From a virus (taxonomy: Duplodnaviria; Heunggongvirae; Uroviricota; Caudoviricetes): a DNA stretch of 64,000 nt. Each line of letters opens with the position of its first letter. Positions within the stretch are counted from its first letter, which is position 1. The notes beneath the pieces were generated by a model. It had not been told where the DNA came from, made no database searches, and saw only the letters and a program-made list of their open reading frames with translations. Below, one piece after another: positions 51,031 through 64,000 of the stretch. The translations under genes were made by a program, and so were the position numbers. The stretch covers positions 28,236-92,235 of IMG/VR virus record IMGVR_UViG_3300043410_000565; one strand, given 5' to 3'.

Positions 51031-51275
51031 GTTTAGCTCAGATTGAAGGGTTCTCTAGTCTAAGAAAAGACACCGCCAATGGCGGTGTCGTGAACGTCGA
51101 TACTAAGATGTATGAGAATCATAAAGCTCAGAAAATGCTTGCTCTTAGAAATATGCAACAACAGAAATCAACGCAAGATACTATGTCCAACTTGCAGAGC
51201 GAGATAAATATGATTAAGAATGACATGAACGACATTAGAAGCATGTTGATTCAACTATTAGAAAAAGGTAACTGA
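51027..51275 (+). CDS. small coiled-coil protein
   Basis: ATGA overlap; usual position after the large virion gene. Confidence 0.75.
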   Translation: MSLAQIEGFSSLRKDTANGGVVNVDTKMYENHKAQKMLALRNMQQQKSTQDTMSNLQSEINMIKNDMNDIRSMLIQLLEKGN

Positions 51276-52489
51276 TGGCTGCTATTCACTTAAGACAAGA
51301 CAAAGAACGTCCACTAACAATTCAAGAAGTTGACGAGAACTTTGACTCAATCAACCGTGAGGTTGGACAGAAGCTGGACACGTTGGCGTTTAACGCTACT
51401 AACATCTTACAATTATTGAACGGTAACGCTGGCGCTGGTTCAACTCTTGATGCTGATAAAGTTCAAGGTAAGTATCCAACATCTGCCGCTAACCCAAACA
51501 CAGTGGTAATCCGCGATGGTTCTGGTAACACTTACTTCAATCAGGTCTATGGTCTACACATTGGTGATGTTGTTGGTGACGTACAAGGTACAGTAACTGG
51601 GGCATTGATCGGTAACGCAACCAACGTTGATGGTGTTGTTCAAGTTGAGCACGGTGGTACTGGTGGTACGACTCCTTCGGCAGCTAGACAGAACATTGGT
51701 TGTGGTTCTATGGCAGTTCAAAACAAGAACACCGTTGATATCACTGGTGGTACTATTACTGGCATCACTGACTTAACAGTCGCCGACGGTGGTACTGGTG
51801 CTTCTACTGCATCTGGCGCACGTTCTAACCTTGGTTTAGTTATCGGTGCTGACGTTCAATCATATGCAGCTATCCTTTCTGGTATTTCATCCACAGCAGG
51901 TGATGGTCTAATTATTAGAACTACGACTAACTCTGCAGTATCTCGCAAGTTTATCCAAGGTAACTCTATCGAGATCACCAACCCTACTGGTAAAGATGGT
52001 GATATTACAGTTGCTTTGGCTCTAGCACCTTCTGTCTCAAGTATTACTAAAGCTGGTACAGACGGTACTGGTGATATTGGACAATCTAATAATAGATTCG
52101 CGACTATCTATGGTACAGCTACTTCAGCAAAATACGCTGACTTGGCAGAAAAGTATACAACAGATAAACATTATGAGCCAGGAACAGTTATTGTAGTTGC
52201 TCACGGTGGCGATTCCGAAGCCACTGCATCATTCCAACTAGGTCAACGTGTAATTGGTGTTGTTTCTACAAAACCAGCGCACATTATGAATGATGAATCT
52301 ACTGGTCAAGCTATCGGTTTGACAGGTCGTTTACCAGTTAAGGTTACTGGACCAATTAAAAAAGGTCAAACTCTTATCGCTTCTCCAGACGGTTATGCTG
52401 TTGCGGGTGAAGGTCAAAACGTGATTGGTCAAGCGCTGGAAACTAACTTGAACGCTGGCGTTAAGCTAGTGGAATGTATTATTAAATAA
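51275..52489 (+). CDS. tail fibre-like protein with C-terminal chaperone/autocleavage-like domain
   Basis: N-terminal KERPLTIQEVDENF; GGTG repeats; ATSAKYADLAEKY...GVVSTKPAH...GLTGRLPVKV. Confidence 0.75.
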   Translation: MAAIHLRQDKERPLTIQEVDENFDSINREVGQKLDTLAFNATNILQLLNGNAGAGSTLDADKVQGKYPTSAANPNTVVIRDGSGNTYFNQVYGLHIGDVVGDVQGTVTGALIGNATNVDGVVQVEHGGTGGTTPSAARQNIGCGSMAVQNKNTVDITGGTITGITDLTVADGGTGASTASGARSNLGLVIGADVQSYAAILSGISSTAGDGLIIRTTTNSAVSRKFIQGNSIEITNPTGKDGDITVALALAPSVSSITKAGTDGTGDIGQSNNRFATIYGTATSAKYADLAEKYTTDKHYEPGTVIVVAHGGDSEATASFQLGQRVIGVVSTKPAHIMNDESTGQAIGLTGRLPVKVTGPIKKGQTLIASPDGYAVAGEGQNVIGQALETNLNAGVKLVECIIK

Positions 52490-52504: not shown

Positions 52505-54355
52505 ATGAAAAAGTTCCTGTTGGTGAATTACTCGCCAGCTACATCCAACGATGGGTCACAAGAGGTTCCATACCTCTGGATGACCCTTCATTCATACTTC
52601 AAACGTAATTCTGTAAACCCAAATGCATGGGAATGGTTAGAACCAATATATTCACCATTAGCAGAAACCCCAGAAGAATTAGTAGATAAAATTGTATCTC
52701 AAACGCCAGACGTTATTGGGATATCTTGTTACATCTGGAACAGCTCTCTTACTTTTTGGGTGGCTGAGCAAGTTAAATTAAAGCTACCTAATGTAAAGAT
52801 TATCGCTGGTGGACCAAGTTTAAATTATTGGAAACATCAAGATTGGTTTAAGATATACTGGTATATTGACCTTGTTTGTAATTACAATGGATACGGTGAA
52901 CCCTTTATAACATCATATTTGGATGGTGCTTCGGTAAAGGAAATTCCATATGCGATATATCCAGACCTTGGTCGGCACGTGTGGAATGAATCAACTGCAA
53001 AAATTACTGTAAAAGAATTTAAGTGGCCAGCACCATATAAAGATAATATTGAATATCTAAAACAGTTTAAAATAAAACACCCTGATGTTAAGGGGATAGT
53101 TGATACTTCTCGTGGATGCCCCTATGCTTGCGTATTCTGTGAGTGGGGTGGCGGCACTTCCACCAAAGTGGCATTTAGACCACTTGTAGACACGCTAGAA
53201 GAACTAGAAATTATGTTTAGTATCTTACAGCCGAAATACGTTGATATTAACAATGCCAATTTTGGTGTTATTAAAGAAGATTTAGTATGCGCTGAAAAGA
53301 TTTGCGAATTGCAAGAAAAATATAAATGTGTACAAGACGTTAATGTGTATGGACCAACTAAGTCTAATAAACTAAGGTTGAAGCAGATATTAAATCTATT
53401 TGCGAAGGTTGGTATAATCCAAGATATGAAACTTTCCGTCCAGTCAACTAATAAACAAATCCTTGATAATATCAAACGTGTTGATATGACATACTCTGAT
53501 CAAAAAGATTTGTTTATCTCAGTTGCAGAAGAAAATAATATCCAATTAAAATTTGAAGGTATTTTGGGGCTTCCAGGGGAAACCGTTGAAACATTCTATC
53601 AAACTATATCTGATTTGGTTGACGATCAAACTCACCCAATGATGTATGAGTGGATTATGTTAGATTCATCTCCAGCTGCAAGAGAACCATATTTCAGCGA
53701 AATGGGTATTGTAACAAAAGAAGTAAAATTCAGAAGAAATGCGTATCTAAACCACACAAAACCTAAGAAAGACGAAGCTATCGGTGACGTTGGTTATCGT
53801 AATATTTTACACGATACTGTATTCGCTAATATAGAAGCTCCAAGGTATGTTGTTGGTACATATTCATACAACTCAGTAGATTGGGTTGAGATGAAGATGG
53901 CTCGTCACGTGTTCTATACTCTTTATAAAACACATTTGATTCAACCATACATTAGACACCTAAGATCTATTGGCGTCCCTATCAATGAATTCTTCAAACG
54001 TTCATTTAGAGGATTCTTCTTAAGAATCCCTCAAGTAAAAATAGCGCATGATGTAATGTTGAAGCAGGTACAATCTGATGAACTACTAGACCCATATTAT
54101 GTAAGTATCGCTGATAACTTACCATACTTTAGCTACTATTCTACTATTAAGTTTGCCATTCTGTTAGACCCTAAGATGTTCTTTAAACTATTTGGAGAAT
54201 GGTTGGTGTCAGCGTATGGTGATACTCACTTTATTGATATTTCTAATGCGATTGGCAACGCTGTTCAAACACCAATGTATAGTGAAATGCCACCAAGAGA
54301 AAAGATATCATCAATCATCGCAATGTGCGAAATGGTAGAATTACCTTTGGTCTAA
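52505..54355 (+). CDS. cobalamin-binding (class B) radical SAM enzyme
   Basis: B12-domain-like PDVIGISCYIWN...IIAGGP; TSRGCPYACVFCEWG; LSVQS; ILGLPGET. Confidence 0.88.
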   Translation: MKKFLLVNYSPATSNDGSQEVPYLWMTLHSYFKRNSVNPNAWEWLEPIYSPLAETPEELVDKIVSQTPDVIGISCYIWNSSLTFWVAEQVKLKLPNVKIIAGGPSLNYWKHQDWFKIYWYIDLVCNYNGYGEPFITSYLDGASVKEIPYAIYPDLGRHVWNESTAKITVKEFKWPAPYKDNIEYLKQFKIKHPDVKGIVDTSRGCPYACVFCEWGGGTSTKVAFRPLVDTLEELEIMFSILQPKYVDINNANFGVIKEDLVCAEKICELQEKYKCVQDVNVYGPTKSNKLRLKQILNLFAKVGIIQDMKLSVQSTNKQILDNIKRVDMTYSDQKDLFISVAEENNIQLKFEGILGLPGETVETFYQTISDLVDDQTHPMMYEWIMLDSSPAAREPYFSEMGIVTKEVKFRRNAYLNHTKPKKDEAIGDVGYRNILHDTVFANIEAPRYVVGTYSYNSVDWVEMKMARHVFYTLYKTHLIQPYIRHLRSIGVPINEFFKRSFRGFFLRIPQVKIAHDVMLKQVQSDELLDPYYVSIADNLPYFSYYSTIKFAILLDPKMFFKLFGEWLVSAYGDTHFIDISNAIGNAVQTPMYSEMPPREKISSIIAMCEMVELPLV

Positions 54356-55684
54356 TTTCTTATTGAAAATCATTTCAAAGGCTTTGTTTTGAATAGCCTT
54401 GTGATAAACTTTTTCAATCGCGCAGTTTGTGTAGAACACCTCATCAGGTACTTCGATTGGGCAGTTAGATTTACACAGTCTAAACACCTCACATGAGCGA
54501 CAGTGACGTTCATAGCGATCCAAATCTACCCTTGCTAAAGAAACGTTCTCGAGTTCATCAATATGACCGCCGATGAATGATTCATCTGTATGCGGGCAAG
54601 TTCTAACATTACCCTTCATATCAACGGATAATACTCCAGAGTCATCAACCCCACACGAAGTAATATAAGTTGGGAGGATCTGTTTACGCAGAGTCTTGGT
54701 GTATGGTAAAACTCCAAGGTGTGACTCTATCAAGGAGTTGTTTAATAGTTTATGGTCTACACCCTTAAAGCGTTGTTCAATGCTATCGTCAATGAAGCGT
54801 TTGATGATATCTTTGAACTTTGCTAGACTTTCACCGTGGATGACATGGTGAGAAGAACCACCATCATGATTGTGACCAACTGTCCAGCTGATCGCAGTCT
54901 TTCTTAAATCAATACCGTTCTGTGTACAATATTCATAGAAGAACTTATTGATTTCGTACAAGTCATAGTTCGTGTGAGAAAGAACTGGGTTAAAGCTGAA
55001 TTGTATGTTGCTATACTTCTGAGCTTCTTTAAGAATATCAACCTTCTTGTGTAGGAATTCTTCACCACGCAGTCGTTCGTGTCCTGGACCATCATGCGAC
55101 AAACCAATAGAAACAGTACCTTTAAGAGTCTTGAAGAACTCAATATGTTTCATCTGTAGAGGTGTACCATTGGTTGGGATAAACCACGTCAACCCCTCGC
55201 GATCAAACTCGCGCATTAACACTTCCATCGTCTTCCAATATAGAAGCGTTTCTCCACCCCACAAATCAATCTTCTCTAAACGAGATAAATCAAGTCGTTT
55301 GATTTGTTCAATAAACGTGTCAACTGTTGTTATCTTCTCACGTTCGTCTGGATTGCCAATATCCTTCTGCATGCAATATGAACAATCGTAATTGCAAGCG
55401 TGACCGAGAAGAACCCTAATCCAGAATGGCTTGTTTGATTTAGCCCTAGTTCTTACTTCTCCATTTACACTCTCATAGAAAGCATCAGGTTCAGTTGGTT
55501 CAGAAAGCGGTTCTTTATTACTATTGTAGATACCGTTGGTGTAGTTATCATAATAGAACTGAGTTCCGTCTTCAAATTTGAACTGAATAAAACTCTCAGC
55601 ATCTCGTGCAAGAGGAGTTCTTTGAGTTTCCTTCTTTAGCTTACTGCGTAGAGAAGCGAGGCTGATGCTGTATGTGTGGCTCAT
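54341..55684 (-). CDS. radical SAM/SPASM protein
   Basis: GHACNYDCSYC, WGGETL, SHDGP, SPASM CGVD...GNVRTC...CRSCEVFRLCKSNCP. Confidence 0.92.
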   Translation of the reverse strand: MSHTYSISLASLRSKLKKETQRTPLARDAESFIQFKFEDGTQFYYDNYTNGIYNSNKEPLSEPTEPDAFYESVNGEVRTRAKSNKPFWIRVLLGHACNYDCSYCMQKDIGNPDEREKITTVDTFIEQIKRLDLSRLEKIDLWGGETLLYWKTMEVLMREFDREGLTWFIPTNGTPLQMKHIEFFKTLKGTVSIGLSHDGPGHERLRGEEFLHKKVDILKEAQKYSNIQFSFNPVLSHTNYDLYEINKFFYEYCTQNGIDLRKTAISWTVGHNHDGGSSHHVIHGESLAKFKDIIKRFIDDSIEQRFKGVDHKLLNNSLIESHLGVLPYTKTLRKQILPTYITSCGVDDSGVLSVDMKGNVRTCPHTDESFIGGHIDELENVSLARVDLDRYERHCRSCEVFRLCKSNCPIEVPDEVFYTNCAIEKVYHKAIQNKAFEMIFNKKLDQR

Positions 55685-56721
55685 TTTGATAAGATAGAAA
55701 CTACTGGAGTTTGTCCATTGTGTAAACCATATGGTGTTTTAGTCCACCCCTCTAGAGAATTAAAGAAAGAACACTCTCTGGGATACATCACATATGGTAT
55801 GAAGTTAAAATCTCTATTCACTTTCGTGTTTAGAGTCGTCGTGAAATACTCTTTAAACTTACTTATGTTTGACTGGTTCGCCCAATCAGCGTATAACTCT
55901 TGTTTCCCTTTTACAACTCTATACAGGAATTCGTTCATATCAAACTCTTCAGCAAATGTATAGAATGGGTCAATAGATAAATCGCAAGCATCATCGCTTG
56001 CATAAAAGAAGTTATTGTAATACAAATGCAACGCTTCTTTATTTACCCTGATTATCTTATCATCTGTTGTCTCAATCCAAGTGTTTTGATACTCTGCCCA
56101 AGGGTGATTCAATATCTTACGCTCTTGTCTAAAATCATTATGTACACAATTGTAGACACGGCTATTATAACCCCATTCTATGATTTGGTCAAATATTTCT
56201 GAGTCTCCACAATCAATGTATTTGATCTTTTTTATTGTAAACCTATCATGTGCCCGTTTGATAAAATCAAGAAGTTTATCGACCCCAATATGCTTTACAA
56301 ACGTTGAACTAATAGATAAGTCAGCGATACCTTTAATTTGTAAATCTTTTAATTGCAAAGTTCTAATTAGGGAGTTATCGGTAACGCAGAGTTCAAACAT
56401 ATTACCGTTGGAGACATACCAATTGTAATCAGCTTTATGGAATTGCTTTAGATAGTATAAGTCGTCGTTTGTTCTAATCGAACCGAACCTTGGCAAGAAG
56501 TCCATCCAAACTTTTTCATACTTCTTTAAATCATTCCCATAGTTTGGTAGGGACTTTGTCTTTTGTAGGTTGTTCTTGATGTAACAAACCTCGCATCCAG
56601 CATCACAATAGTAGCGTTTACCAAGGCTGAAGTTTATATCATAATCCAAAGATCTAAGCGCATCTTCTTTTACCCAGTATGCGTTTAGATCGGTGTAATT
56701 ATCAAAGTCATTTCTGTCCAT
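55681..56721 (-). CDS. divergent radical SAM-like protein
   Basis: YYCDAGCEVCYI (CxxxCxxC) near the N-terminus; start MDRNDF chosen from the overlap with the upstream stop. Confidence 0.6.
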   Translation of the reverse strand: MDRNDFDNYTDLNAYWVKEDALRSLDYDINFSLGKRYYCDAGCEVCYIKNNLQKTKSLPNYGNDLKKYEKVWMDFLPRFGSIRTNDDLYYLKQFHKADYNWYVSNGNMFELCVTDNSLIRTLQLKDLQIKGIADLSISSTFVKHIGVDKLLDFIKRAHDRFTIKKIKYIDCGDSEIFDQIIEWGYNSRVYNCVHNDFRQERKILNHPWAEYQNTWIETTDDKIIRVNKEALHLYYNNFFYASDDACDLSIDPFYTFAEEFDMNEFLYRVVKGKQELYADWANQSNISKFKEYFTTTLNTKVNRDFNFIPYVMYPRECSFFNSLEGWTKTPYGLHNGQTPVVSILSK

Positions 56722-57769
56722 CGGCGATCCAGTGGTAGAAAGATTTCTTTTCATGTAGCTTGGTTGTATAGTGTACCATTGCGTTTTGAATCTGATAGAA
56801 CTGAACGCATTTAGTCCCAGGTTCAGTATCAAACATCTTATGTAGATATTTCAATCCGCATAAAGTTCTAGAAGGGCAACCTGTGCACTTCTCTGGTACA
56901 ACCTCGTCTGGTTCGCCGTTTCTAGTCAGGCTGATATCACCAACCCATTTACCGACTTGATATTCTGGACGCTTATATTCGCAGAAGTCATACTCTGAGT
57001 AAATGTAACCATCTGGTGAAAGGATAATTTTGTAGTGATCGCCGAAGTAGTTCTTGTCAGTAACTCCATAGTTTCCGTCAATGAATACCATAATATTGTA
57101 GTTGTAAAGAACGTTCACGAAACGGATGAAAGCGTCAGCGTATTGAGCCATATCCATATCTTCAATTAGAGTCTTAAACTTCTGCCCACCTCTATGATGA
57201 CGTAGAGGTATAAGGTTGATTGATCGAACCTTGCAGCGAGAAACTTTATCTAGGATATCTTTGATACAATCTAGACTGAACACCTTACGGTCTTGAACTG
57301 GCATAACGAATTGCCAGTGAATGGGGATATTGTAATACCCGCACAACTCAATAGACTTGTAAATATCAAATTGTTCACGGTTGGCTTCTTGGTAAATGAA
57401 GTCATATGATATGGTGAACTTTAAATACTTGCGCCATTTCTCCAAGAACCATTGTTCCTTTTCAAACAGAGCAGCATTAGTTGTGATTGATACATATAAA
57501 CCCTTGCCGTCTAAGTATTTGTCTTTAAGGGTTTCTAGGATTTCATCCATTCGCTTTACATAGAGGAATGGTTCTCCGCCATGTAAAGCAATACGGTCTA
57601 CTTTATTTGGTTGATCAAATGCCCACTCAAAAAATGTTTCCAGTTCTTGGATGTATTTCTTTGACATATTCTGCCCACCGAGACTTTTAATATAGTCTCG
57701 GTCGCAGTAAGTGCAGTTGAAATTACAAGTATCTCCAAGATAGATGGAGATAGTATTCACATTCTTCAT
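56708..57769 (-). CDS. radical SAM protein with degenerate SPASM/twitch
   Basis: GDTCNFNCTYC, HGGEPFL, TTNA, ISYD, ILSPDGYIY, CTGCPSRTLC. Confidence 0.9.
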   Translation of the reverse strand: MKNVNTISIYLGDTCNFNCTYCDRDYIKSLGGQNMSKKYIQELETFFEWAFDQPNKVDRIALHGGEPFLYVKRMDEILETLKDKYLDGKGLYVSITTNAALFEKEQWFLEKWRKYLKFTISYDFIYQEANREQFDIYKSIELCGYYNIPIHWQFVMPVQDRKVFSLDCIKDILDKVSRCKVRSINLIPLRHHRGGQKFKTLIEDMDMAQYADAFIRFVNVLYNYNIMVFIDGNYGVTDKNYFGDHYKIILSPDGYIYSEYDFCEYKRPEYQVGKWVGDISLTRNGEPDEVVPEKCTGCPSRTLCGLKYLHKMFDTEPGTKCVQFYQIQNAMVHYTTKLHEKKSFYHWIADGQK

Positions 57770-59070
57770 AATCCCATTGATACTTTACGATAATTTCTAG
57801 CTGATTGTTTTTTAGCTACATCGTCTTGTAGATCTAGGTATAACTTGACGATCTTTTGACACATATCGTCTGGACGGAATAACGGTGTTCCAGTGGACAC
57901 GTTTCCAGCTGGGCATTGATAACAGTAGTTGCGATAATCGCAGGACTTACATTGTTCTTCCTCTGTGTGCATTTTGTTGTAGAGGTCTTGGAATGTAGTA
58001 TAACGATCTATGTGAACACGGTCTTCAAAGATATTACCTAACACAGTAGGTTTAACTGCATCTACTTCTTTCATATTAGTGAAGAAGTAGCAACCAGTAA
58101 AGTCACCAGAACCGTCGATCGCGATCATATCGCTTCCAACTAAACAGTTGTTTTCAACCTTTTGACCAACACCTTCTGAAAACGAGATTTCAAAATCAGC
58201 GTATTTGTCGATAAGGTGAATAATATCTGAGTGTAAGTTAGACCAAGTGTCAGTATTCCAGCTGATATAACCAACGCTAGAATCGTGAACTAGCGGATGA
58301 ACGATGATATTACGGATACCAATTCCATATAGTTTCTCCATATATTCTTTGAAGTATGGAGCGTGTTCTTGCGCAAGAGTACATCTAAAGAAGATACGGT
58401 CTTTAGCGTGGCGTGGTAAACCAGAAACCGTGTCGATGATGTGGTCAATTTGTTCTTGTTTTAACTCACGGTGATCCAACTCAACTTGTAGTGTATCGAG
58501 GGAAATCATCATATATGTGAAGTCATACTCGAAGTATACCTTACAAAATTCTTTGTTTAAAAGGATACCGTTAGTAATCATGCTAACAGCTTGTCCCTTA
58601 TCAAAGAAAGTCTTTGTTAGGTATTCCTTGTTTCTTTCCAAGAAATTAACAATAAGGTCTTTGTGAATTAACGGTTCTCCACCAAAGAACTGGAATCGTT
58701 TATTCTTAGCTTTGGAGTTATCCAATAACCAGTTGTATGCTTTTAGTAGAGAGTCTTCTGTAAATCTACCATAATCTTTCTTATGCTGTTCGTAGCAATA
58801 TGAACAAGAAAGGTTACATGCATTGGTTAGAATCACATTCATATGTCCAATATCTTGAAATAGATGTTGGACAGCTGAGAATGAAACAACCTTTTCTTCA
58901 GGTGATGGAAGAATGGAGATTAGTTTGTTTTGCTTGGAAAGCCCCTTCGGAGTGATAATATCTTCAGTTCTAAATTGAAGAGTCCCATCAGGGGAAACCC
59001 CGACCGTCGCTTCATGGTCGGGGTTGATTGATTTTCTAGACTTGTGAAATACCAAAGGATATTCGCTCAT
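57766..59070 (-). CDS. radical SAM/SPASM protein
   Basis: TNACNLSCSYC, FFGGEPL, TNG, ISLD, CLVG...GDFTGC...CKSCDYRNYCYQCPAGN; GAGG RBS before ATG 59070. Confidence 0.92.
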   Translation of the reverse strand: MSEYPLVFHKSRKSINPDHEATVGVSPDGTLQFRTEDIITPKGLSKQNKLISILPSPEEKVVSFSAVQHLFQDIGHMNVILTNACNLSCSYCYEQHKKDYGRFTEDSLLKAYNWLLDNSKAKNKRFQFFGGEPLIHKDLIVNFLERNKEYLTKTFFDKGQAVSMITNGILLNKEFCKVYFEYDFTYMMISLDTLQVELDHRELKQEQIDHIIDTVSGLPRHAKDRIFFRCTLAQEHAPYFKEYMEKLYGIGIRNIIVHPLVHDSSVGYISWNTDTWSNLHSDIIHLIDKYADFEISFSEGVGQKVENNCLVGSDMIAIDGSGDFTGCYFFTNMKEVDAVKPTVLGNIFEDRVHIDRYTTFQDLYNKMHTEEEQCKSCDYRNYCYQCPAGNVSTGTPLFRPDDMCQKIVKLYLDLQDDVAKKQSARNYRKVSMGL

Positions 59071-59086
59071 AATATACCTCAAAAAG

Positions 59087-60040
59087 TTAATGTCGGATAA
59101 TCACAAAATCGTATCTTAGTTGTTCCTGTTTAGAAGAAATATAATCCAACTCAGTACCTGTGACCCAACGATATGAAAGTGTCGTTACGTCTTTATTTAG
59201 TGAGATTGTAATAGTGTTGCTGTCACGTTGATAATTGCCAGAACATTCAACATCCAAACGGATACGTGGAAGTTCATCATTACCTAAACGGCGACCAGCG
59301 ATCTTATGGAATTTAGAGTTGTAACCAAATAAATCAATCACAACAGTATCGCTAGTCGTAGCAATAATGTTTGGACCAATAAACTTAGAGTTAGAATCTA
59401 GACTCGGAGTAAACACTGAATCTCTTAGATTACCGTCGTGAGAGTTTAAGAACTCGATAACGTCAGTTCTATCTCGTAGATTAATTTCAGACTCGTCGCT
59501 CTTAATGATAGAAGACTCTAGCAAGTTATCATTGATCACAACGTAGTATACATCAGTATCAACCATCTTGTAGAACGCCATCCAAATAGCTGCAAATGGA
59601 TTACCTTCTAACACGCTTTGGCGAGTTAGGTTAGTTGGTCGTTTATCTAGAACATTTCTACCAAAGAAGCAAGATTGTTCAATAACTGTATTCTGAGAAA
59701 CCATTTCATCCGTGAAAAGGTAGCCAAAATAAACAACATCCAAACCGCTATCTAAAAATGCCTTTGCTTTTTCTAAGTCGATTTCCTTGATGCCCATAGT
59801 TTGGTTTTCAGTTGGCATAGCCATGGCTAAAAGTAGCTTGCCCTCGGCATCGTTATAGATGCCTAGCTTTTTATCAATCTTGATGTAAGAATTAAAGAAG
59901 TTGTCGTACTTCTTAATCTTAGTTAGATCTACCTGACCAAGACCAGGTGGCAATCCATCATAATAAACGTTCAACCCTTCGGCTACGTTCGCCCAAGAGT
60001 GGTTGACTGAGTTCTCAGTGTTAAAGAAAAATGTACTCAT
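59087..60040 (-). CDS. hypothetical protein in the rSAM operon
   Basis: TAATG coupling to the Cys-rich peptide gene; no recognised motif. Confidence 0.75.
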   Translation of the reverse strand: MSTFFFNTENSVNHSWANVAEGLNVYYDGLPPGLGQVDLTKIKKYDNFFNSYIKIDKKLGIYNDAEGKLLLAMAMPTENQTMGIKEIDLEKAKAFLDSGLDVVYFGYLFTDEMVSQNTVIEQSCFFGRNVLDKRPTNLTRQSVLEGNPFAAIWMAFYKMVDTDVYYVVINDNLLESSIIKSDESEINLRDRTDVIEFLNSHDGNLRDSVFTPSLDSNSKFIGPNIIATTSDTVVIDLFGYNSKFHKIAGRRLGNDELPRIRLDVECSGNYQRDSNTITISLNKDVTTLSYRWVTGTELDYISSKQEQLRYDFVIIRH

Positions 60041-60243
60041 TAGCAAGATCCTCTTCCGCAAGCGCAGTTACAATTGCAGTTGCAATTAGTTGAATAGTCG
60101 TCGTAAAATAGATGAGTGTGGTCAGTTAGCGAATCCAACACTTCTAGCATTTGTTTATATGTATCAGCGGTTACGATATCCCCCGCTGCTTTAGAGTCTA
60201 CGGTTAGACCAGTGGTCACCGTGCTTAGGTTTTCAACTGCCAT
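60040..60243 (-). CDS. Cys-rich candidate rSAM substrate (67 aa)
   Basis: ends DYSTNCNCNCNCACGRGSC; GGAG RBS; adjacent to rSAM genes. Confidence 0.8.
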   Translation of the reverse strand: MAVENLSTVTTGLTVDSKAAGDIVTADTYKQMLEVLDSLTDHTHLFYDDYSTNCNCNCNCACGRGSC

Positions 60244-60246
60244 TTA

Positions 60247-60642
60247 TTAAGCTCCAGTTCTATCGTCGATAGAATGATAGTGATCATTACCAGACAGAAT
60301 ACTAGATCTTAGAGTCTGGTGTAAAGATGCTGTTATGTCATCACCTGACGCAACTGTTGTTGAGATATCAGCCGAAGTTGCAAGAGAAGCAGAAGTATTC
60401 TCTGGGTTATTATCGTATGATGTACCATACGGTGAAGTGTTACCATACGCTTCCCACCATTGATCCGGAACAGTGTGATAGTGATTATTGAAGCTGTTCC
60501 AGCAAGAAATTAGAGAATTAATCTGAGCCGCAGTGATTGTACTGCCAGCTGCGATCGCTGCCTTCAAATCGGTGATTGTCGTTTGAAGACTAGCTGAGGT
60601 AGGACCAACCATACCTGATGTAGTTCTCGTTATTTGAGGCAT
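60247..60642 (-). CDS. small HxH-repeat virion-like protein
   Basis: two (A/S)G..ITA...HYH repeats; GGA RBS; first gene after a late-promoter motif. Confidence 0.75.
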   Translation of the reverse strand: MPQITRTTSGMVGPTSASLQTTITDLKAAIAAGSTITAAQINSLISCWNSFNNHYHTVPDQWWEAYGNTSPYGTSYDNNPENTSASLATSADISTTVASGDDITASLHQTLRSSILSGNDHYHSIDDRTGA

Positions 60643-60670
60643 TTTATCGTTCCAAGGTGTTATACATCTA

Positions 60671-60720
60671 TATTTAGCCCTGTTGGATTACCTAAATAAA
60701 AGGTAGCTAAATATAAATAT
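60671..60720. promoter_or_regulatory. divergent late-promoter motifs
   Basis: CTAAATA on minus (60677-60671); CTAAATA at 60692 and 60708 and TATAAATA at 60713 on plus. Confidence 0.65.
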
Positions 60721-60752
60721 ATTTATTGAAACTCTCATTTTAGGGATCATAG

Positions 60753-62015
60753 ATGCCATCTATTATTACAAGAACGACCTCCGGAACCGACGCAACGGTC
60801 AAGGGGTTGCCATTAACCAACGCTGAAATTGACGGTAACTTTATAGCGATAAACCACGCTATCATTGCAACTGGCGATTTAACTGGGTTTACAGACAGAT
60901 CAGCCAGCACTCTCGTTTGGAACAACGCCACTAGAACTATTTTTCTAGCCCCAGTGGTTGGTTCTTTTAGCGTGTATTATAGAGGATCAGAACTAACTGT
61001 ATCTGACTCTCTTCAGTATCAAATCCCAAATAACACTGGTGGTCGATGGATTATTTTAAACCCATCAACGCTGCAGTTAGAAGAGTCTTTAACGATTGAT
61101 TTCGAAACTGACCTCCCAGTTGCTTGGATTTATTATAATCACGTTGACGCAGTGGCAATTGTAGCTTCTGATGAAAGACATACTGCTTCTAGAGATATTC
61201 AATGGCACATCTCCAAGCATGCTGAAGTTGGAACTACATGGTTATCTGGCGGCGACTGCACATATAATCTAAACAACCAAACATCACTGTCCCTTGGTTT
61301 CACTGATATCACAATTGCTGATGAAGATATTAACCACGATATATCTCACAGCATAACACCAAACGGGTTCTACCAACAAATCCTTTCATCAAACGCGATG
61401 ATCCCAGTTGTGTATAAGAACGGTTCCGTTACAAGCCAAATCGCTGCAGCGAACCCACCGTGGCAAGTTAACACAACTGCTAAGTATAATCAAGTCATTG
61501 GTAACAGTGGTAGTCTTGTAGATGCGCCAAACAACACTTATGTAAATTATTACATTATCGCCACTAATGACATGACGTTCCCAATCAAGGCTGTGGTTGG
61601 AACTGGTAATTATGCAACCTTATTGCAGGCATTCAATGAACAATTTGATGTTGCCAACCTTCTTATGGAAGAAGTTGTTGCAATGTATCAAATCACTCTG
61701 CATACAAATACCGCATACACAAACAAGGTTGTTATTGCTTCTGTTAGAAAATTATCTAGCCAAGCAAACGTCTTACCAGATCAAATCTTAAATGGTCCAT
61801 CCCACGCTGGATTGAGCAAGCTATCAAATGATGATCACTTACAGTATGTTCATATTTCTAACGCTAGAACAATCACTGCAGCGCACACGTTTAATGGCGT
61901 TCAAACTTTTGTAAACGGTATTAAAATTAACTCAAAACCAGTTGTAAACCTTGATGGTGCTAATAAACAATACGTTGATCAGCAAGCATTACTGATGTCA
62001 TTCTTAAATGCTTAA
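60753..62015 (+). CDS. tail fibre-like structural protein
   Basis: N-terminal KGLPLTNAEIDGNF (similar to 51275); C-terminal LSNDDHLQY and DGANKQYVD motifs. Confidence 0.7.
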   Translation: MPSIITRTTSGTDATVKGLPLTNAEIDGNFIAINHAIIATGDLTGFTDRSASTLVWNNATRTIFLAPVVGSFSVYYRGSELTVSDSLQYQIPNNTGGRWIILNPSTLQLEESLTIDFETDLPVAWIYYNHVDAVAIVASDERHTASRDIQWHISKHAEVGTTWLSGGDCTYNLNNQTSLSLGFTDITIADEDINHDISHSITPNGFYQQILSSNAMIPVVYKNGSVTSQIAAANPPWQVNTTAKYNQVIGNSGSLVDAPNNTYVNYYIIATNDMTFPIKAVVGTGNYATLLQAFNEQFDVANLLMEEVVAMYQITLHTNTAYTNKVVIASVRKLSSQANVLPDQILNGPSHAGLSKLSNDDHLQYVHISNARTITAAHTFNGVQTFVNGIKINSKPVVNLDGANKQYVDQQALLMSFLNA

Positions 62016-62739: not shown

Positions 62740-63723
62740 GTGGCTTCATTATCACAATTACTAGAATCAAAAAGAGGCACGTTCAATTCTGCAGAAGAAA
62801 ATATTGAACAAGGGCAGATTTGGGTTTATACCTCTCCTGCTGGTTATACTGGTTACTGGAACAACTTCTGCTGGCAAGCGCCAGGATGCGGTCATGTAAC
62901 AGTTGAAGTTTGGGGTGCTGGCGGATCAAGCGCAAAGATGTGCTGCTGCGGATTCGGTATCCCAGGCAACCCAGGAGCCTATGCCAAGAAAACTATTCAC
63001 GTTCAACCAGGCGACTGGTTGTGCGGTGACGTCGGTAAAGCATGTAACAACTCAAACGATTTATGTTTCCGTGGTTGTTCTTCACCAAGCTGGGTGGGTT
63101 GGACTGGACGAGATTGCCGTGGTAATACCACAGGTTATATCTGCGCTCAGGGTGGTAAAGGTGGTGTAACGCTATGTTCCACTGGCACTTCTGCCACTTG
63201 CTGTTTCGGTCTACAAGGTTTCTGTACTACAATATATCCATATGGTTGCGTTTATGCAGGCGTTGTGTGTAACAAATGTTCTGGTGAATGGATAGCCCAA
63301 GCATATGGTGGTGATATTAACTGTTGCGGTGGTTTCTCTTGTGCGTCATTTATGCTTTGCGCTCCAGAATGTATGTGTACATACCACTACCATTTGGCGA
63401 CTCCTCCAGGGTTATACTCTAAAGAAGGTGGCGTTGCAACTCATACTGTAGAAAACAACAACGAATTCTCTAACTGGTCTGGTCAAGGGCACAGCGAGGC
63501 ATTATCTGCAATCAACGCTCTTGGTAGATTCCCGTCACAGTCAAATAACTGGGCTTCTTGCTGGGGTTTCTCTGGACAATGCGGATGTTATGATTCAGAC
63601 GGATGTACTAGAGGTATGCCAACTGGCGTTCCAGGAACAGCTCCGCATCCATGCGCTGGTGTTCGCGATCACGCTCATACTGGCGGTAGTGGTGCAGTTC
63701 GAATCAAATTTATTGCGGGATAA
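62740..63723 (+). CDS. Cys/Gly-rich fibre-associated protein
   Basis: EVWGAGGS...MCCCG..G.PG..GAYAKKTI; about 29 Cys; GTG start. Confidence 0.75.
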   Translation: MASLSQLLESKRGTFNSAEENIEQGQIWVYTSPAGYTGYWNNFCWQAPGCGHVTVEVWGAGGSSAKMCCCGFGIPGNPGAYAKKTIHVQPGDWLCGDVGKACNNSNDLCFRGCSSPSWVGWTGRDCRGNTTGYICAQGGKGGVTLCSTGTSATCCFGLQGFCTTIYPYGCVYAGVVCNKCSGEWIAQAYGGDINCCGGFSCASFMLCAPECMCTYHYHLATPPGLYSKEGGVATHTVENNNEFSNWSGQGHSEALSAINALGRFPSQSNNWASCWGFSGQCGCYDSDGCTRGMPTGVPGTAPHPCAGVRDHAHTGGSGAVRIKFIAG

Positions 63724-63726
63724 AAT

Positions 63727-64000
63727 ATGGCGTCATTAAGACAAAGTTTATTAGTAAAATATGACACAATCGTTAATAACGAACAAAACCTAGAAACTGG
63801 TAAAGTTTGGGTATATAACGAAGCGACTGTTCGTACTAAATTTTACAACTGCTGGTGTTGGAAATCACCAGGAGTTGGTAAGGCTATTATTGAAGCATGG
63901 GGTGCTGGCGGATCTGGTGCTCGTATGTGCTGCTGCGGGTCAGGTTTGCCAGGAAACTCTGGCGCTTACTCAAAGAAAACTATTTGCGTAGACGCTAACA
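63727..64000 (+). CDS. paralog of 62740..63723, truncated by the window end
   Basis: hand-translated MASLRQSLL...EAWGAGGSGARMCCCGSGLPGNSGAYSKKTI. Confidence 0.85.
   Translation, partial: MASLRQSLLVKYDTIVNNEQNLETGKVWVYNEATVRTKFYNCWCWKSPGVGKAIIEAWGAGGSGARMCCCGSGLPGNSGAYSKKTICVDAN

Follow-up and report, generated by a model that had tools for sequence, protein, structure and literature searches.

Here, we describe an eight-gene cassette in a 64,000-nt stretch of phage DNA (hereafter, the window) from IMG/VR record IMGVR_UViG_3300043410_000565, the 160,850-bp genome, rated complete by CheckV, of a freshwater T4-like phage. Five of its genes (A to E) encode proteins with the CxxxCxxC motif of radical S-adenosylmethionine (radical-SAM) enzymes, one (F) an all-beta protein and two (G and H) small proteins that share a His-x-His (HxH) unit; they sit between the tail-fibre gene fibL and the putative fibre gene fibR, with A on the plus strand and H, G, F, E, D, C and B on the minus strand. 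We think it probable that the cassette carries out a late-expressed maturation, similar to that of RiPPs (peptides made on ribosomes and then modified post-translationally), of a small fibre-associated H-G bundle, most plausibly by Cys thioether cross-links, and that the product stays protein-bound; the chemistry, the metal site, the late expression and the virion location are features that we infer. An earlier note on this DNA had proposed that the phage cross-links and methylates a small structural protein at late times rather than making a secreted bacteriocin. We likewise favour a structural target over a bacteriocin, because the peptide and the enzymes co-occur across loci, the cassette keeps its position in fibre modules, it is absent as a block from close relatives, radical-SAM genes are linked to the Cys tail, and (NC)n tails are found on fibres themselves. 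Methylation, in contrast, does not appear to be core (see below).

The likely substrate is G, a protein of 67 aa (60040..60243, minus strand) with a conserved family of homologues. It consists of one helix+HxH unit, an FYDDY motif and then (NC)4-AC-GRGSC, its C-terminus reading NCNCNCNCACGRGSC, and this alternating-Cys run is the sole one in the 160,850-bp genome. Clustering of the G family gives 27 clusters at 90% identity and, at 50%, 79 representatives; almost all members have 55-135 aa, with a variable N-terminus and the near-invariant block QML.ILD.L..H[TS]H.FYDDY..C.C.C.C.C[GT]RG. Invariant residues are L33, L36, H42, T43, H44, Y47, D48, D49, Y50, C54, C56, N57, C58, C60, R64 and G65; the last Cys of G is not conserved among homologues, and the Asn residues of the ladder are replaced by Glu, Gln, Asp or Ala in some relatives. 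H, the likely partner of G (131 aa; 60247..60642, minus strand), contains two copies of the unit that G holds once (G..I.A...helix...HxH...D), and its residues H54, H56, D60, H121, H123 and D127 are invariant (alignment A5). That two small proteins lead the operon, one of them with the Cys-rich end, had been claimed previously and is borne out by H and G.

The number of HxH units per system was three in 6/6 architectures examined. These are distributed as 2+1 in the window and in L022, as 2+1 in L025, where both proteins have large C-terminal domains, and as 1+2 in L031, and all three are found in one chain in P0067, a natural H+G fusion, and in P0119. An H-G pairing was likely beforehand because of the fusion P0067, and it is also weakly supported by complex prediction: H+G scored 0.58 (three runs, 0.57-0.62) against 0.02 for the best control, with a partner pLDDT (predicted local distance difference test) of at least 58 and a contact agreement between runs of at least 79%. 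The mark for this score was reached by 58/80 solved complexes and 2/110 mismatched pairs, and passes at or below 0.60 are weak, comprising 7 of the 80 solved complexes and both mismatched pairs. The HxH unit seems to behave as an assembly domain to which varying distal parts are attached, and not as a disposable leader, because the units in L025 and L093 carry large C-terminal domains and the NC run of P0078 is internal. The H-type protein of L093 (L093:6623-7978) has 452 aa, with two HxH units followed by a 320-aa extension that includes a Hint/intein-like segment, CFPAGSFVLMADGTWKLIEDVDVGDMI. P0078 (L022:4239-5009) is a G-type protein in which an internal NCNCNC precedes a linker of poly-proline and then a domain of ~180 aa that contains Cys.

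The fused and extended forms were retrieved by an exhaustive profile search with G, whereas a word-index search for longer G-containing proteins found none; four further candidates from the profile search (P0121 and P0125-P0127, E 3e-5 to 6e-4) were rejected as unrelated repeat proteins. A tblastn search of H against phage records gave no match. The N-terminus of H, MPQITRTTSG (60613-60642, minus strand), shares ten near-identical residues with that of fibR, MPSIITRTTSG (60753-60782, plus strand); within the 160-kb genome, N-termini of the MP.ITRTTSG type were found in H and fibR only, and G has a looser form, LSTVTTG.

Radical-SAM genes accompany the Cys tail. A synteny survey proposed with the earlier note showed that, in all related loci examined, the G-type peptide is accompanied by radical-SAM genes. 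Wherever a Cys-tailed G-type protein is encoded, one or more such genes are present, the sets being {E,D,C,B}, {E,D} in L023 and {B} in L022. In L022, B is the sole radical-SAM gene and adjoins the gene of the NCNCNC protein P0078. In the tail-less L025, no radical-SAM gene was found within 8 kb, and none was called on the contig of P0119, which ends one gene downstream of P0119. Because these tail-less three-unit systems show no radical-SAM neighbours, the enzymes appear to go with the Cys tail rather than with the HxH units; HxH units as radical-SAM targets were rejected on the same grounds.

The association extends to tail fibres. An IMG/VR pattern scan for (NC)4, from which 80 loci were fetched, gave 53 in-frame runs of (NC)≥4, 45 of which (45/53) end no more than 11 residues from the C-terminus. 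A same-strand radical-SAM gene occurs within 2.5 kb of 35/53 runs, and in 17/19 of the loci whose flanks reach 3 kb or more on each side. Among the long (NC)n carriers, 8/10 match tail-fibre PHROGs (down to 2e-70), and a single B-like radical-SAM enzyme follows each (NC)n-tailed fibre in other phages. Homologues of fibL at L069:9297-10469, L085:2819-3997 and L100:899-2041 (31-34% identity over ~270 aa) bear (NC)4 tails of their own, NCNCNCNC, and each of them is followed by a gene for ~270 aa and then by a B-like radical-SAM gene. In an unrooted maximum-likelihood tree of 50 rows, in which three G-type loci were omitted from the fibre group, E, D, B and the fibre-associated enzymes formed four clean groups, and the split separating B and the enzymes beside (NC)n-tailed fibres from E and D was supported at 96/95. 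Because the fibre-associated enzymes group with B (96/95), it is B, and not only the PapB-like E, that seems to be the type of enzyme accompanying (NC)n tails in general.

The cassette is conserved as a unit well beyond the present phage. Genes arranged as H-G-(F)-E-D-C-B are found again in RP12 and RP31, two jumbo phages of Ralstonia, in ~14 distinct IMG/VR contigs (some only 10-kb fragments, the largest being records that span 257 and 379 kb) and on a contig of a Bdellovibrio metagenome-assembled genome (MAG; L026). In RP12, the open reading frame (ORF) ORF074 corresponds to H, an unannotated 65-aa ORF to G, ORF075 to F and ORF076-079 to E, D, C and B; the G homologue lies at 82888-83085 (L001:10790-10987) and is unannotated in the GenBank records of both RP12 and RP31. 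In phage loci, the cassette sits after a tail-fibre gene or inside a fibre module, and the gene directly upstream of H matches tail-fibre PHROGs in L011, L022, L023 and L025. The closest cassette-free relatives, L152 and L153, have a large structural protein 50-72% identical to that of the present phage and contain 0/8 cassette genes between their fibL homologue and fibR-type gene. The cassette thus reads as an all-or-none insertion between two fibre genes, because L152 and L153 join the fibL- and fibR-type genes directly.

Both flanks had been described as tail-fibre genes, which holds for the left and is less certain for the right. The left gene, fibL (404 aa; 51275..52489, plus strand), matches the tail-fibre families phrog_19602 (3e-11) and phrog_22593 (3e-18). 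The right gene, fibR (420 aa; 60753..62015, plus strand), had no family match in Pfam, NCBIfam or PHROGs and other matches that were only weak, to hypothetical proteins; its putative fibre role follows from N-terminal likeness, its first 43 residues being 65% identical to those of a fibre-positioned 436-aa protein of L152/L153, whose C-terminus, read by eye, resembles an S74-type fibre chaperone. At a distance of 2 kb from the cassette, and outside the block conserved in other loci, are tandem Cys/Gly-rich paralogues (62740-64000) with ~29 Cys in 327 aa.

At the sequence level, the minus-strand genes form the tightly coupled operon reported previously: G and F meet at TAATG, E/D and C/B at ATGA, D and C overlap by 14 nt and 3 nt lie between H and G. 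These genes are translationally coupled. For the late-promoter motif said to precede the operon, a correction is called for. A T4-type late-promoter-like motif, AATAAATA (60720..60727, minus strand), lies 78 nt upstream of H by direct reading of the sequence, whereas the exact motif, TATAAATA (60712..60719), is on the plus strand, 34 nt upstream of fibR and directed toward it; TATAAATA was accordingly rejected as the driver of the minus-strand operon. The two motifs abut at 60712-60727, one facing fibR and the other facing H, and a single divergent control region may serve both fibR and the cassette. Copies of the core ATAAATA are fewer in the window than expected (9 vs 17.2), and several of the nine are upstream of same-strand gene starts. 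Near-identical DNA is present in freshwater, aquatic and marine metagenomes according to a listing of sequencing runs, in which no RNA datasets appear. A megablast search of the 8.2-kb region against phage records gave no match.

Five CxxxCxxC proteins within 52505-60642 had been claimed, with one of the B12 type, two with a full SPASM set, one reduced and one very divergent, and all five were recovered as such. Pfam searches matched Radical_SAM (B, D and E), SPASM (E) and B12-binding (A), and gave no match at E ≤ 0.01 for the RiPP recognition element (RRE, PqqD-like). Scores against Pfam Radical_SAM (PF04055, cut-off 29.5 bits) were 49.6, 46.5 and 62.9 bits for B, D and E, respectively. E (434 aa from the ATG at 59070; 57766..59070, minus strand) is of the radical-SAM/SPASM peptide-maturase type, carrying CNLSCSYC, GGE and the complete seven-Cys SPASM pattern (applied as Cx9-15Gx4C ... 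CxxCx5Cx3C ... C), with a Pfam SPASM match of 24.5 bits against a cut-off of 21.5. Its best NCBIfam match is PapB (NF047865; 122.2 bits, E 2.6e-35, cut-off of 340 not reached), a family against which D and B score 41.7 and 39.8 bits. Further matches of E are to the CXXX-repeat maturase, CcpM and the SCIFF maturase, which stand alongside PapB and CteB as Cys-thioether maturases, and its nearest solved structure is CteB (5WGG/5WHY, E 8e-11). Here and in L004/L005, E has 434 aa and lacks a C-terminal extension of ~150 aa; orthologues elsewhere are mostly of 537-587 aa, examples with the longer C-terminus being L007:9941-11698 and L001:11944-13557.

B (447 aa; 54341..55684, minus strand) is a second radical-SAM/SPASM enzyme, with CNYDCSYC, GGE and a complete seven-Cys SPASM set (C344, C363, C395, C398, C404, C408 and C421); it scores 28.3 bits against TIGR04085, over the cut-off of 27. 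In both E and B, N-terminal extensions of ~85-95 aa precede the cluster motif and could represent an RRE. D (353 aa; 56708..57769, minus strand) has CNFNCTYC, GGE and a reduced auxiliary-cluster set of five Cys (C263, C295, C298, C304 and C321, i.e., CxxCx5C plus two more), of which C295, C298, C304 and C321 are invariant (alignment A4). C (346 aa from the ATG at 56721; 55681..56721, minus strand) is the divergent, radical-SAM-like member. It carries CDAGCEVC only, a CxxxCxxC motif that is invariant among 10 homologues (alignment A3), and has no GGE or SPASM Cys and no match in Pfam and NCBIfam searches. Profile comparison of C with D gave a weak match (E 3.4e-4, 38% probability), its language-model neighbours are viral Radical_SAM clusters (0.95), and its single-sequence AlphaFold2 model was uninformative (pLDDT 32).

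A (616 aa; 52505..54355, plus strand) has the class-B, B12-dependent layout, in which an N-terminal B12-binding domain is followed by the radical-SAM motif. Residues 50-106 match Pfam B12-binding (PF02310) at 32.5 bits, against a cut-off of 32.1, and CPYACVFC starts at residue 205, with a Radical_SAM score of 26.7 bits that is slightly short of the cut-off. The best NCBIfam match of A is the KedN5 C-methyltransferase family (105 bits, cut-off 700). Among the loci, L004, L005 and L012/L013 alone have A linked with the cassette. Because it is present in only ~4 of ~15 loci, A appears to be accessory and methylation not part of the core, which amends this component of the earlier proposal.

F (317 aa; 59087..60040, minus strand) is all-beta with an Ig-like C-terminal domain in its AlphaFold2 model (pLDDT 85.5; predicted template modelling score, pTM, 0.86). 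Across related loci, the F gene adjoins G in every case. The best viral match of the model is RP12 ORF075, with a template modelling (TM) score of 0.70 at 11% identity, and other fold searches returned generic Ig-like or beta-sandwich matches only (Foldseek against PDB, TM ≤ 0.22, and AFDB, TM ≤ 0.25; VIA, Z ≤ 6.4 over residues 200-317). The searches of PDB, AFDB and VIA matched no enzyme or RRE fold to the F model, such a fold being still possible.

Taken together, these observations are consistent with a mechanism in which the cassette would be expressed together with the fibre genes of the phage, and H (two units) and G (one unit) would assemble into a three-unit pseudo-trimer bundle with six clustered His, probably holding one metal ion. 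The alternating-Cys tail of G (NCNCNCNCAC-GRG) would then be the substrate of the neighbouring radical-SAM enzymes, with B, E and D installing sulfur-to-carbon (ranthionine-type) thioethers from Cys thiols to side-chain carbons of the interleaved Asn, Asp, Glu and Gln. C may serve as a divergent helper or enzyme, A would add an optional C-methylation where present, and F could be a non-enzymatic beta-sandwich partner, adaptor or chaperone. The product would remain attached on or near the fibre and be neither cleaved nor exported. A broader and more tentative proposal is that several unrelated phage lineages, and perhaps the predatory Bdellovibrio, use radical-SAM chemistry to convert a ladder of alternating Asn and Cys, placed where a fibre contacts the host, into a polycyclic knot that is stapled by thioethers and in some cases methylated, built here on a two-protein, three-HxH, metal-centred mini-fibre.

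Several observations weigh against our proposal. Modification of G is predicted from sequence, the strength of the complex prediction for H and G is low, 0 radical-SAM enzymes of the cassette reach a curated NCBIfam family cut-off, and no cassette protein has an RRE (PqqD-like) Pfam match at E ≤ 0.01. The oxygen sensitivity of radical-SAM enzymes is a difficulty for their use in an aerobic aquatic host. The virion proteome of RP31 (32 proteins from excised gel bands) contains neither ORF70 nor ORF71, the homologues of H and F (PMC5468394 Table S3). It also lacks the adjacent annotated fibre genes (PMC5468394 Table S3), and its sensitivity is limited because those neighbours escaped detection too; G could not be scored, since the 65-aa ORF is unannotated. 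Relatives of the cassette add genes for DUF3050, a class-III aminotransferase and a 2-oxoglutarate (2OG)-Fe(II) oxygenase, which are more typical of natural-product clusters. A gene for DUF3050 (PF11251, heme-oxygenase-like) follows B in many relatives (L007:15122-15877, L001:17063-17899 and L026:8562-9326), its RP12 protein having been called MgoB-like (PMC5468394); the aminotransferase gene occurs in L007, L009 and L017, and the oxygenase gene in L031. None of the three is among the cassette genes of the present phage, and a search of its genome for DUF3050 gave no match, an absence that is not established since control genomes also gave none. Furthermore, the full H-G-F-E-D-C-B-DUF3050 set is found on the Bdellovibrio MAG contig NCGL01000045.1 (L026:1971-9326, L030:1975-6971), beside ordinary bacterial genes. 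Three fibre-like genes and a second C-like gene lie ~5 kb from this copy, and their fibre-like products, read by eye, have prepilin-type N-termini and chaperone-type C-termini. Bdellovibrio has fibre-like prey-recognition proteins, which these cassette-side genes recall.

Some of these observations would fit a released RiPP product instead, whether a bacteriocin, a signal or a host-takeover peptide, with the N-terminus of G as a leader to which the maturases bind and its modified Cys-rich core cleaved off to act at a distance from the virion. A small G with a Cys-rich C-terminus just upstream of a PapB/CteB-like SPASM enzyme is the classic precursor-maturase layout, and the tailoring enzymes of relatives (DUF3050/MgoB-like, aminotransferase and 2OG oxygenase), the non-detection of the H and F homologues in the RP31 virion and the chromosomal copy in Bdellovibrio fit the same idea. 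However, the genes that release would call for were found in no locus examined: as previously claimed, the cassette includes no transporter, leader peptidase or immunity gene, and searches of Pfam, NCBIfam and PHROGs matched no peptidase, transporter or immunity family, nor were these seen in the related loci. The supposed leader is one of three conserved bundle units and bears large domains in other systems, the NC run of P0078 is internal with a domain after it, and conservation is highest in the supposed core of G and lowest at its N-terminus. The position after a fibre gene is constant, and (NC)n tails occur on tail fibres beside enzymes that are sister to B. On balance, we regard a released product as unlikely. 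Even less probable, in our view, is a precursor role for G in making a peptide-derived cofactor or small molecule (PQQ- or mycofactocin-like) from FYDDY or residues of the C-terminus, with the accessory oxygenase and aminotransferase completing it. Y47, D48, D49 and Y50 are invariant beside the Cys run, the cassette has several radical-SAM/SPASM enzymes, and DUF3050, an aminotransferase or a 2OG oxygenase is found in addition at some loci. Yet these accessory enzymes were not found in the present phage (with the DUF3050 search subject to its unmatched control), no peptidase was matched that would release a product, and neither the three-unit rule nor the (NC)n tails fused to fibres would be accounted for; we therefore give this reading very little weight.

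The tail and the HxH motifs might instead be plain metal or Fe-S sites of a small fibre protein, with the enzymes acting elsewhere, for example on the Cys/Gly-rich tip proteins, on fibres or on a glycan. CxCxC and HxH are both classic metal-ligand motifs, the HxH of T4 fibres binds metal, two Cys-rich tip paralogues lie 2 kb away and the enzyme subsets differ between loci. Against this, radical-SAM genes follow the Cys tail (L025 has neither tail nor enzyme, and the P0119 contig has no enzyme within its reach), G adjoins the enzymes in every locus while the Cys/Gly-rich tip genes fall outside the conserved block, and one B-like enzyme follows each (NC)n-tailed fibre in other phages. We consider metal binding without modification of G quite unlikely, and return to maturation of the H-G bundle as the reading that we prefer.

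Radical-SAM peptide maturases are makers of secreted natural products and are rarely cross-linkers of cellular proteins. If the preferred reading is true, tailed phages apply radical-SAM chemistry to their own host-recognition apparatus, and post-translational carbon-sulfur stapling would be an unrecognised layer in the building, stabilising and diversifying of fibres. The stapled knot of the broader proposal would, if real, be the first component of a virus particle to be cross-linked by enzymes, and a new determinant of adsorption or particle stability that phages could exchange. The three-unit HxH bundle would be a new and compact module for assembly, with distal domains that differ between phages. 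New here is that RiPP-like radical-SAM maturation is placed in a virion-fibre setting together with this module. The system is open to direct testing, as RP12 and RP31 are cultured, the substrate has 65-67 residues and the gene set is small. It would also account for the 'radical SAM' and 'antibiotic synthesis' genes of phage papers (PMC5468394, PMC12801897). In the literature, such genes are given without function or as 'antibiotic synthesis genes' (PMC5468394; for a cyanophage, PMC12801897); we found passing annotations only, and no paper describing the cassette or such a virus-particle modification.

Among known systems, PapB/PapA (freyrasin) and CteB/CteA (SCIFF) resemble the cassette in having a SPASM enzyme gene beside a small Cys-rich peptide with interleaved Asp, Glu or Asn. 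Unlike these ranthipeptide systems, which have one radical-SAM gene, the cassette has four to five, is without a protease or exporter match, lies within a phage tail-fibre module and has in place of a leader a conserved HxH assembly unit common to the partner H; its product is probably not released. E is a look-alike of PapB (122 bits vs a cut-off of 340) and not a member by the NCBI criterion. NxxcB is said, in work attributed to Caruso et al. 2019, to form a Cys-to-Asn beta-thioether in NxxcA with N-x-x-C spacing. The (NC)n run of G can be read as overlapping N-x-x-C (N53-C56, N55-C58 and N57-C60), which is a likeness of spacing only, and some G relatives, in contrast, carry Glu, Gln, Asp or Ala at the Asn positions. 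In T4 fibres, HxH sites (gp37 tip and gp12) bind metal, the three copies coming from a homotrimer of one long fibre. The likeness consists of three His-x-His per assembly in fibre-module proteins, whereas in the putative assembly here the copies are divided between two small proteins (2+1) or held by a single fused chain.

The modification of a protein that stays intact also has precedents. In QhpD/QhpC and CrpC/CrpA, SPASM radical-SAM enzymes put ranthionine links in an intact functional protein, and CrpA has a folded N-terminal domain that aids binding, as well as a look-alike partner, CrpB (PMC13692751). Those systems are cellular (an enzyme subunit and a methanogen protein of unknown role), whereas here the putative target is tied to a phage fibre and forms part of a three-unit HxH bundle. 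Class-B C-methyltransferases of the KedN5/PoyC type have, like A, a B12-binding domain followed by radical-SAM, but A reaches only 105 of 700 bits and is accessory. The (NC)n-tailed fibres that stand beside a B-like enzyme share with the cassette an alternating Asn-Cys tail at the extreme C-terminus and an enzyme of the sister group, often with a gene for 230-310 aa in between, in the place that F occupies here. In those phages, a full-length fibre carries the fused tail and one enzyme is enough, whereas in the cassette the tail belongs to a 67-aa HxH protein that comes with a partner, H, and with three or four extra radical-SAM genes.

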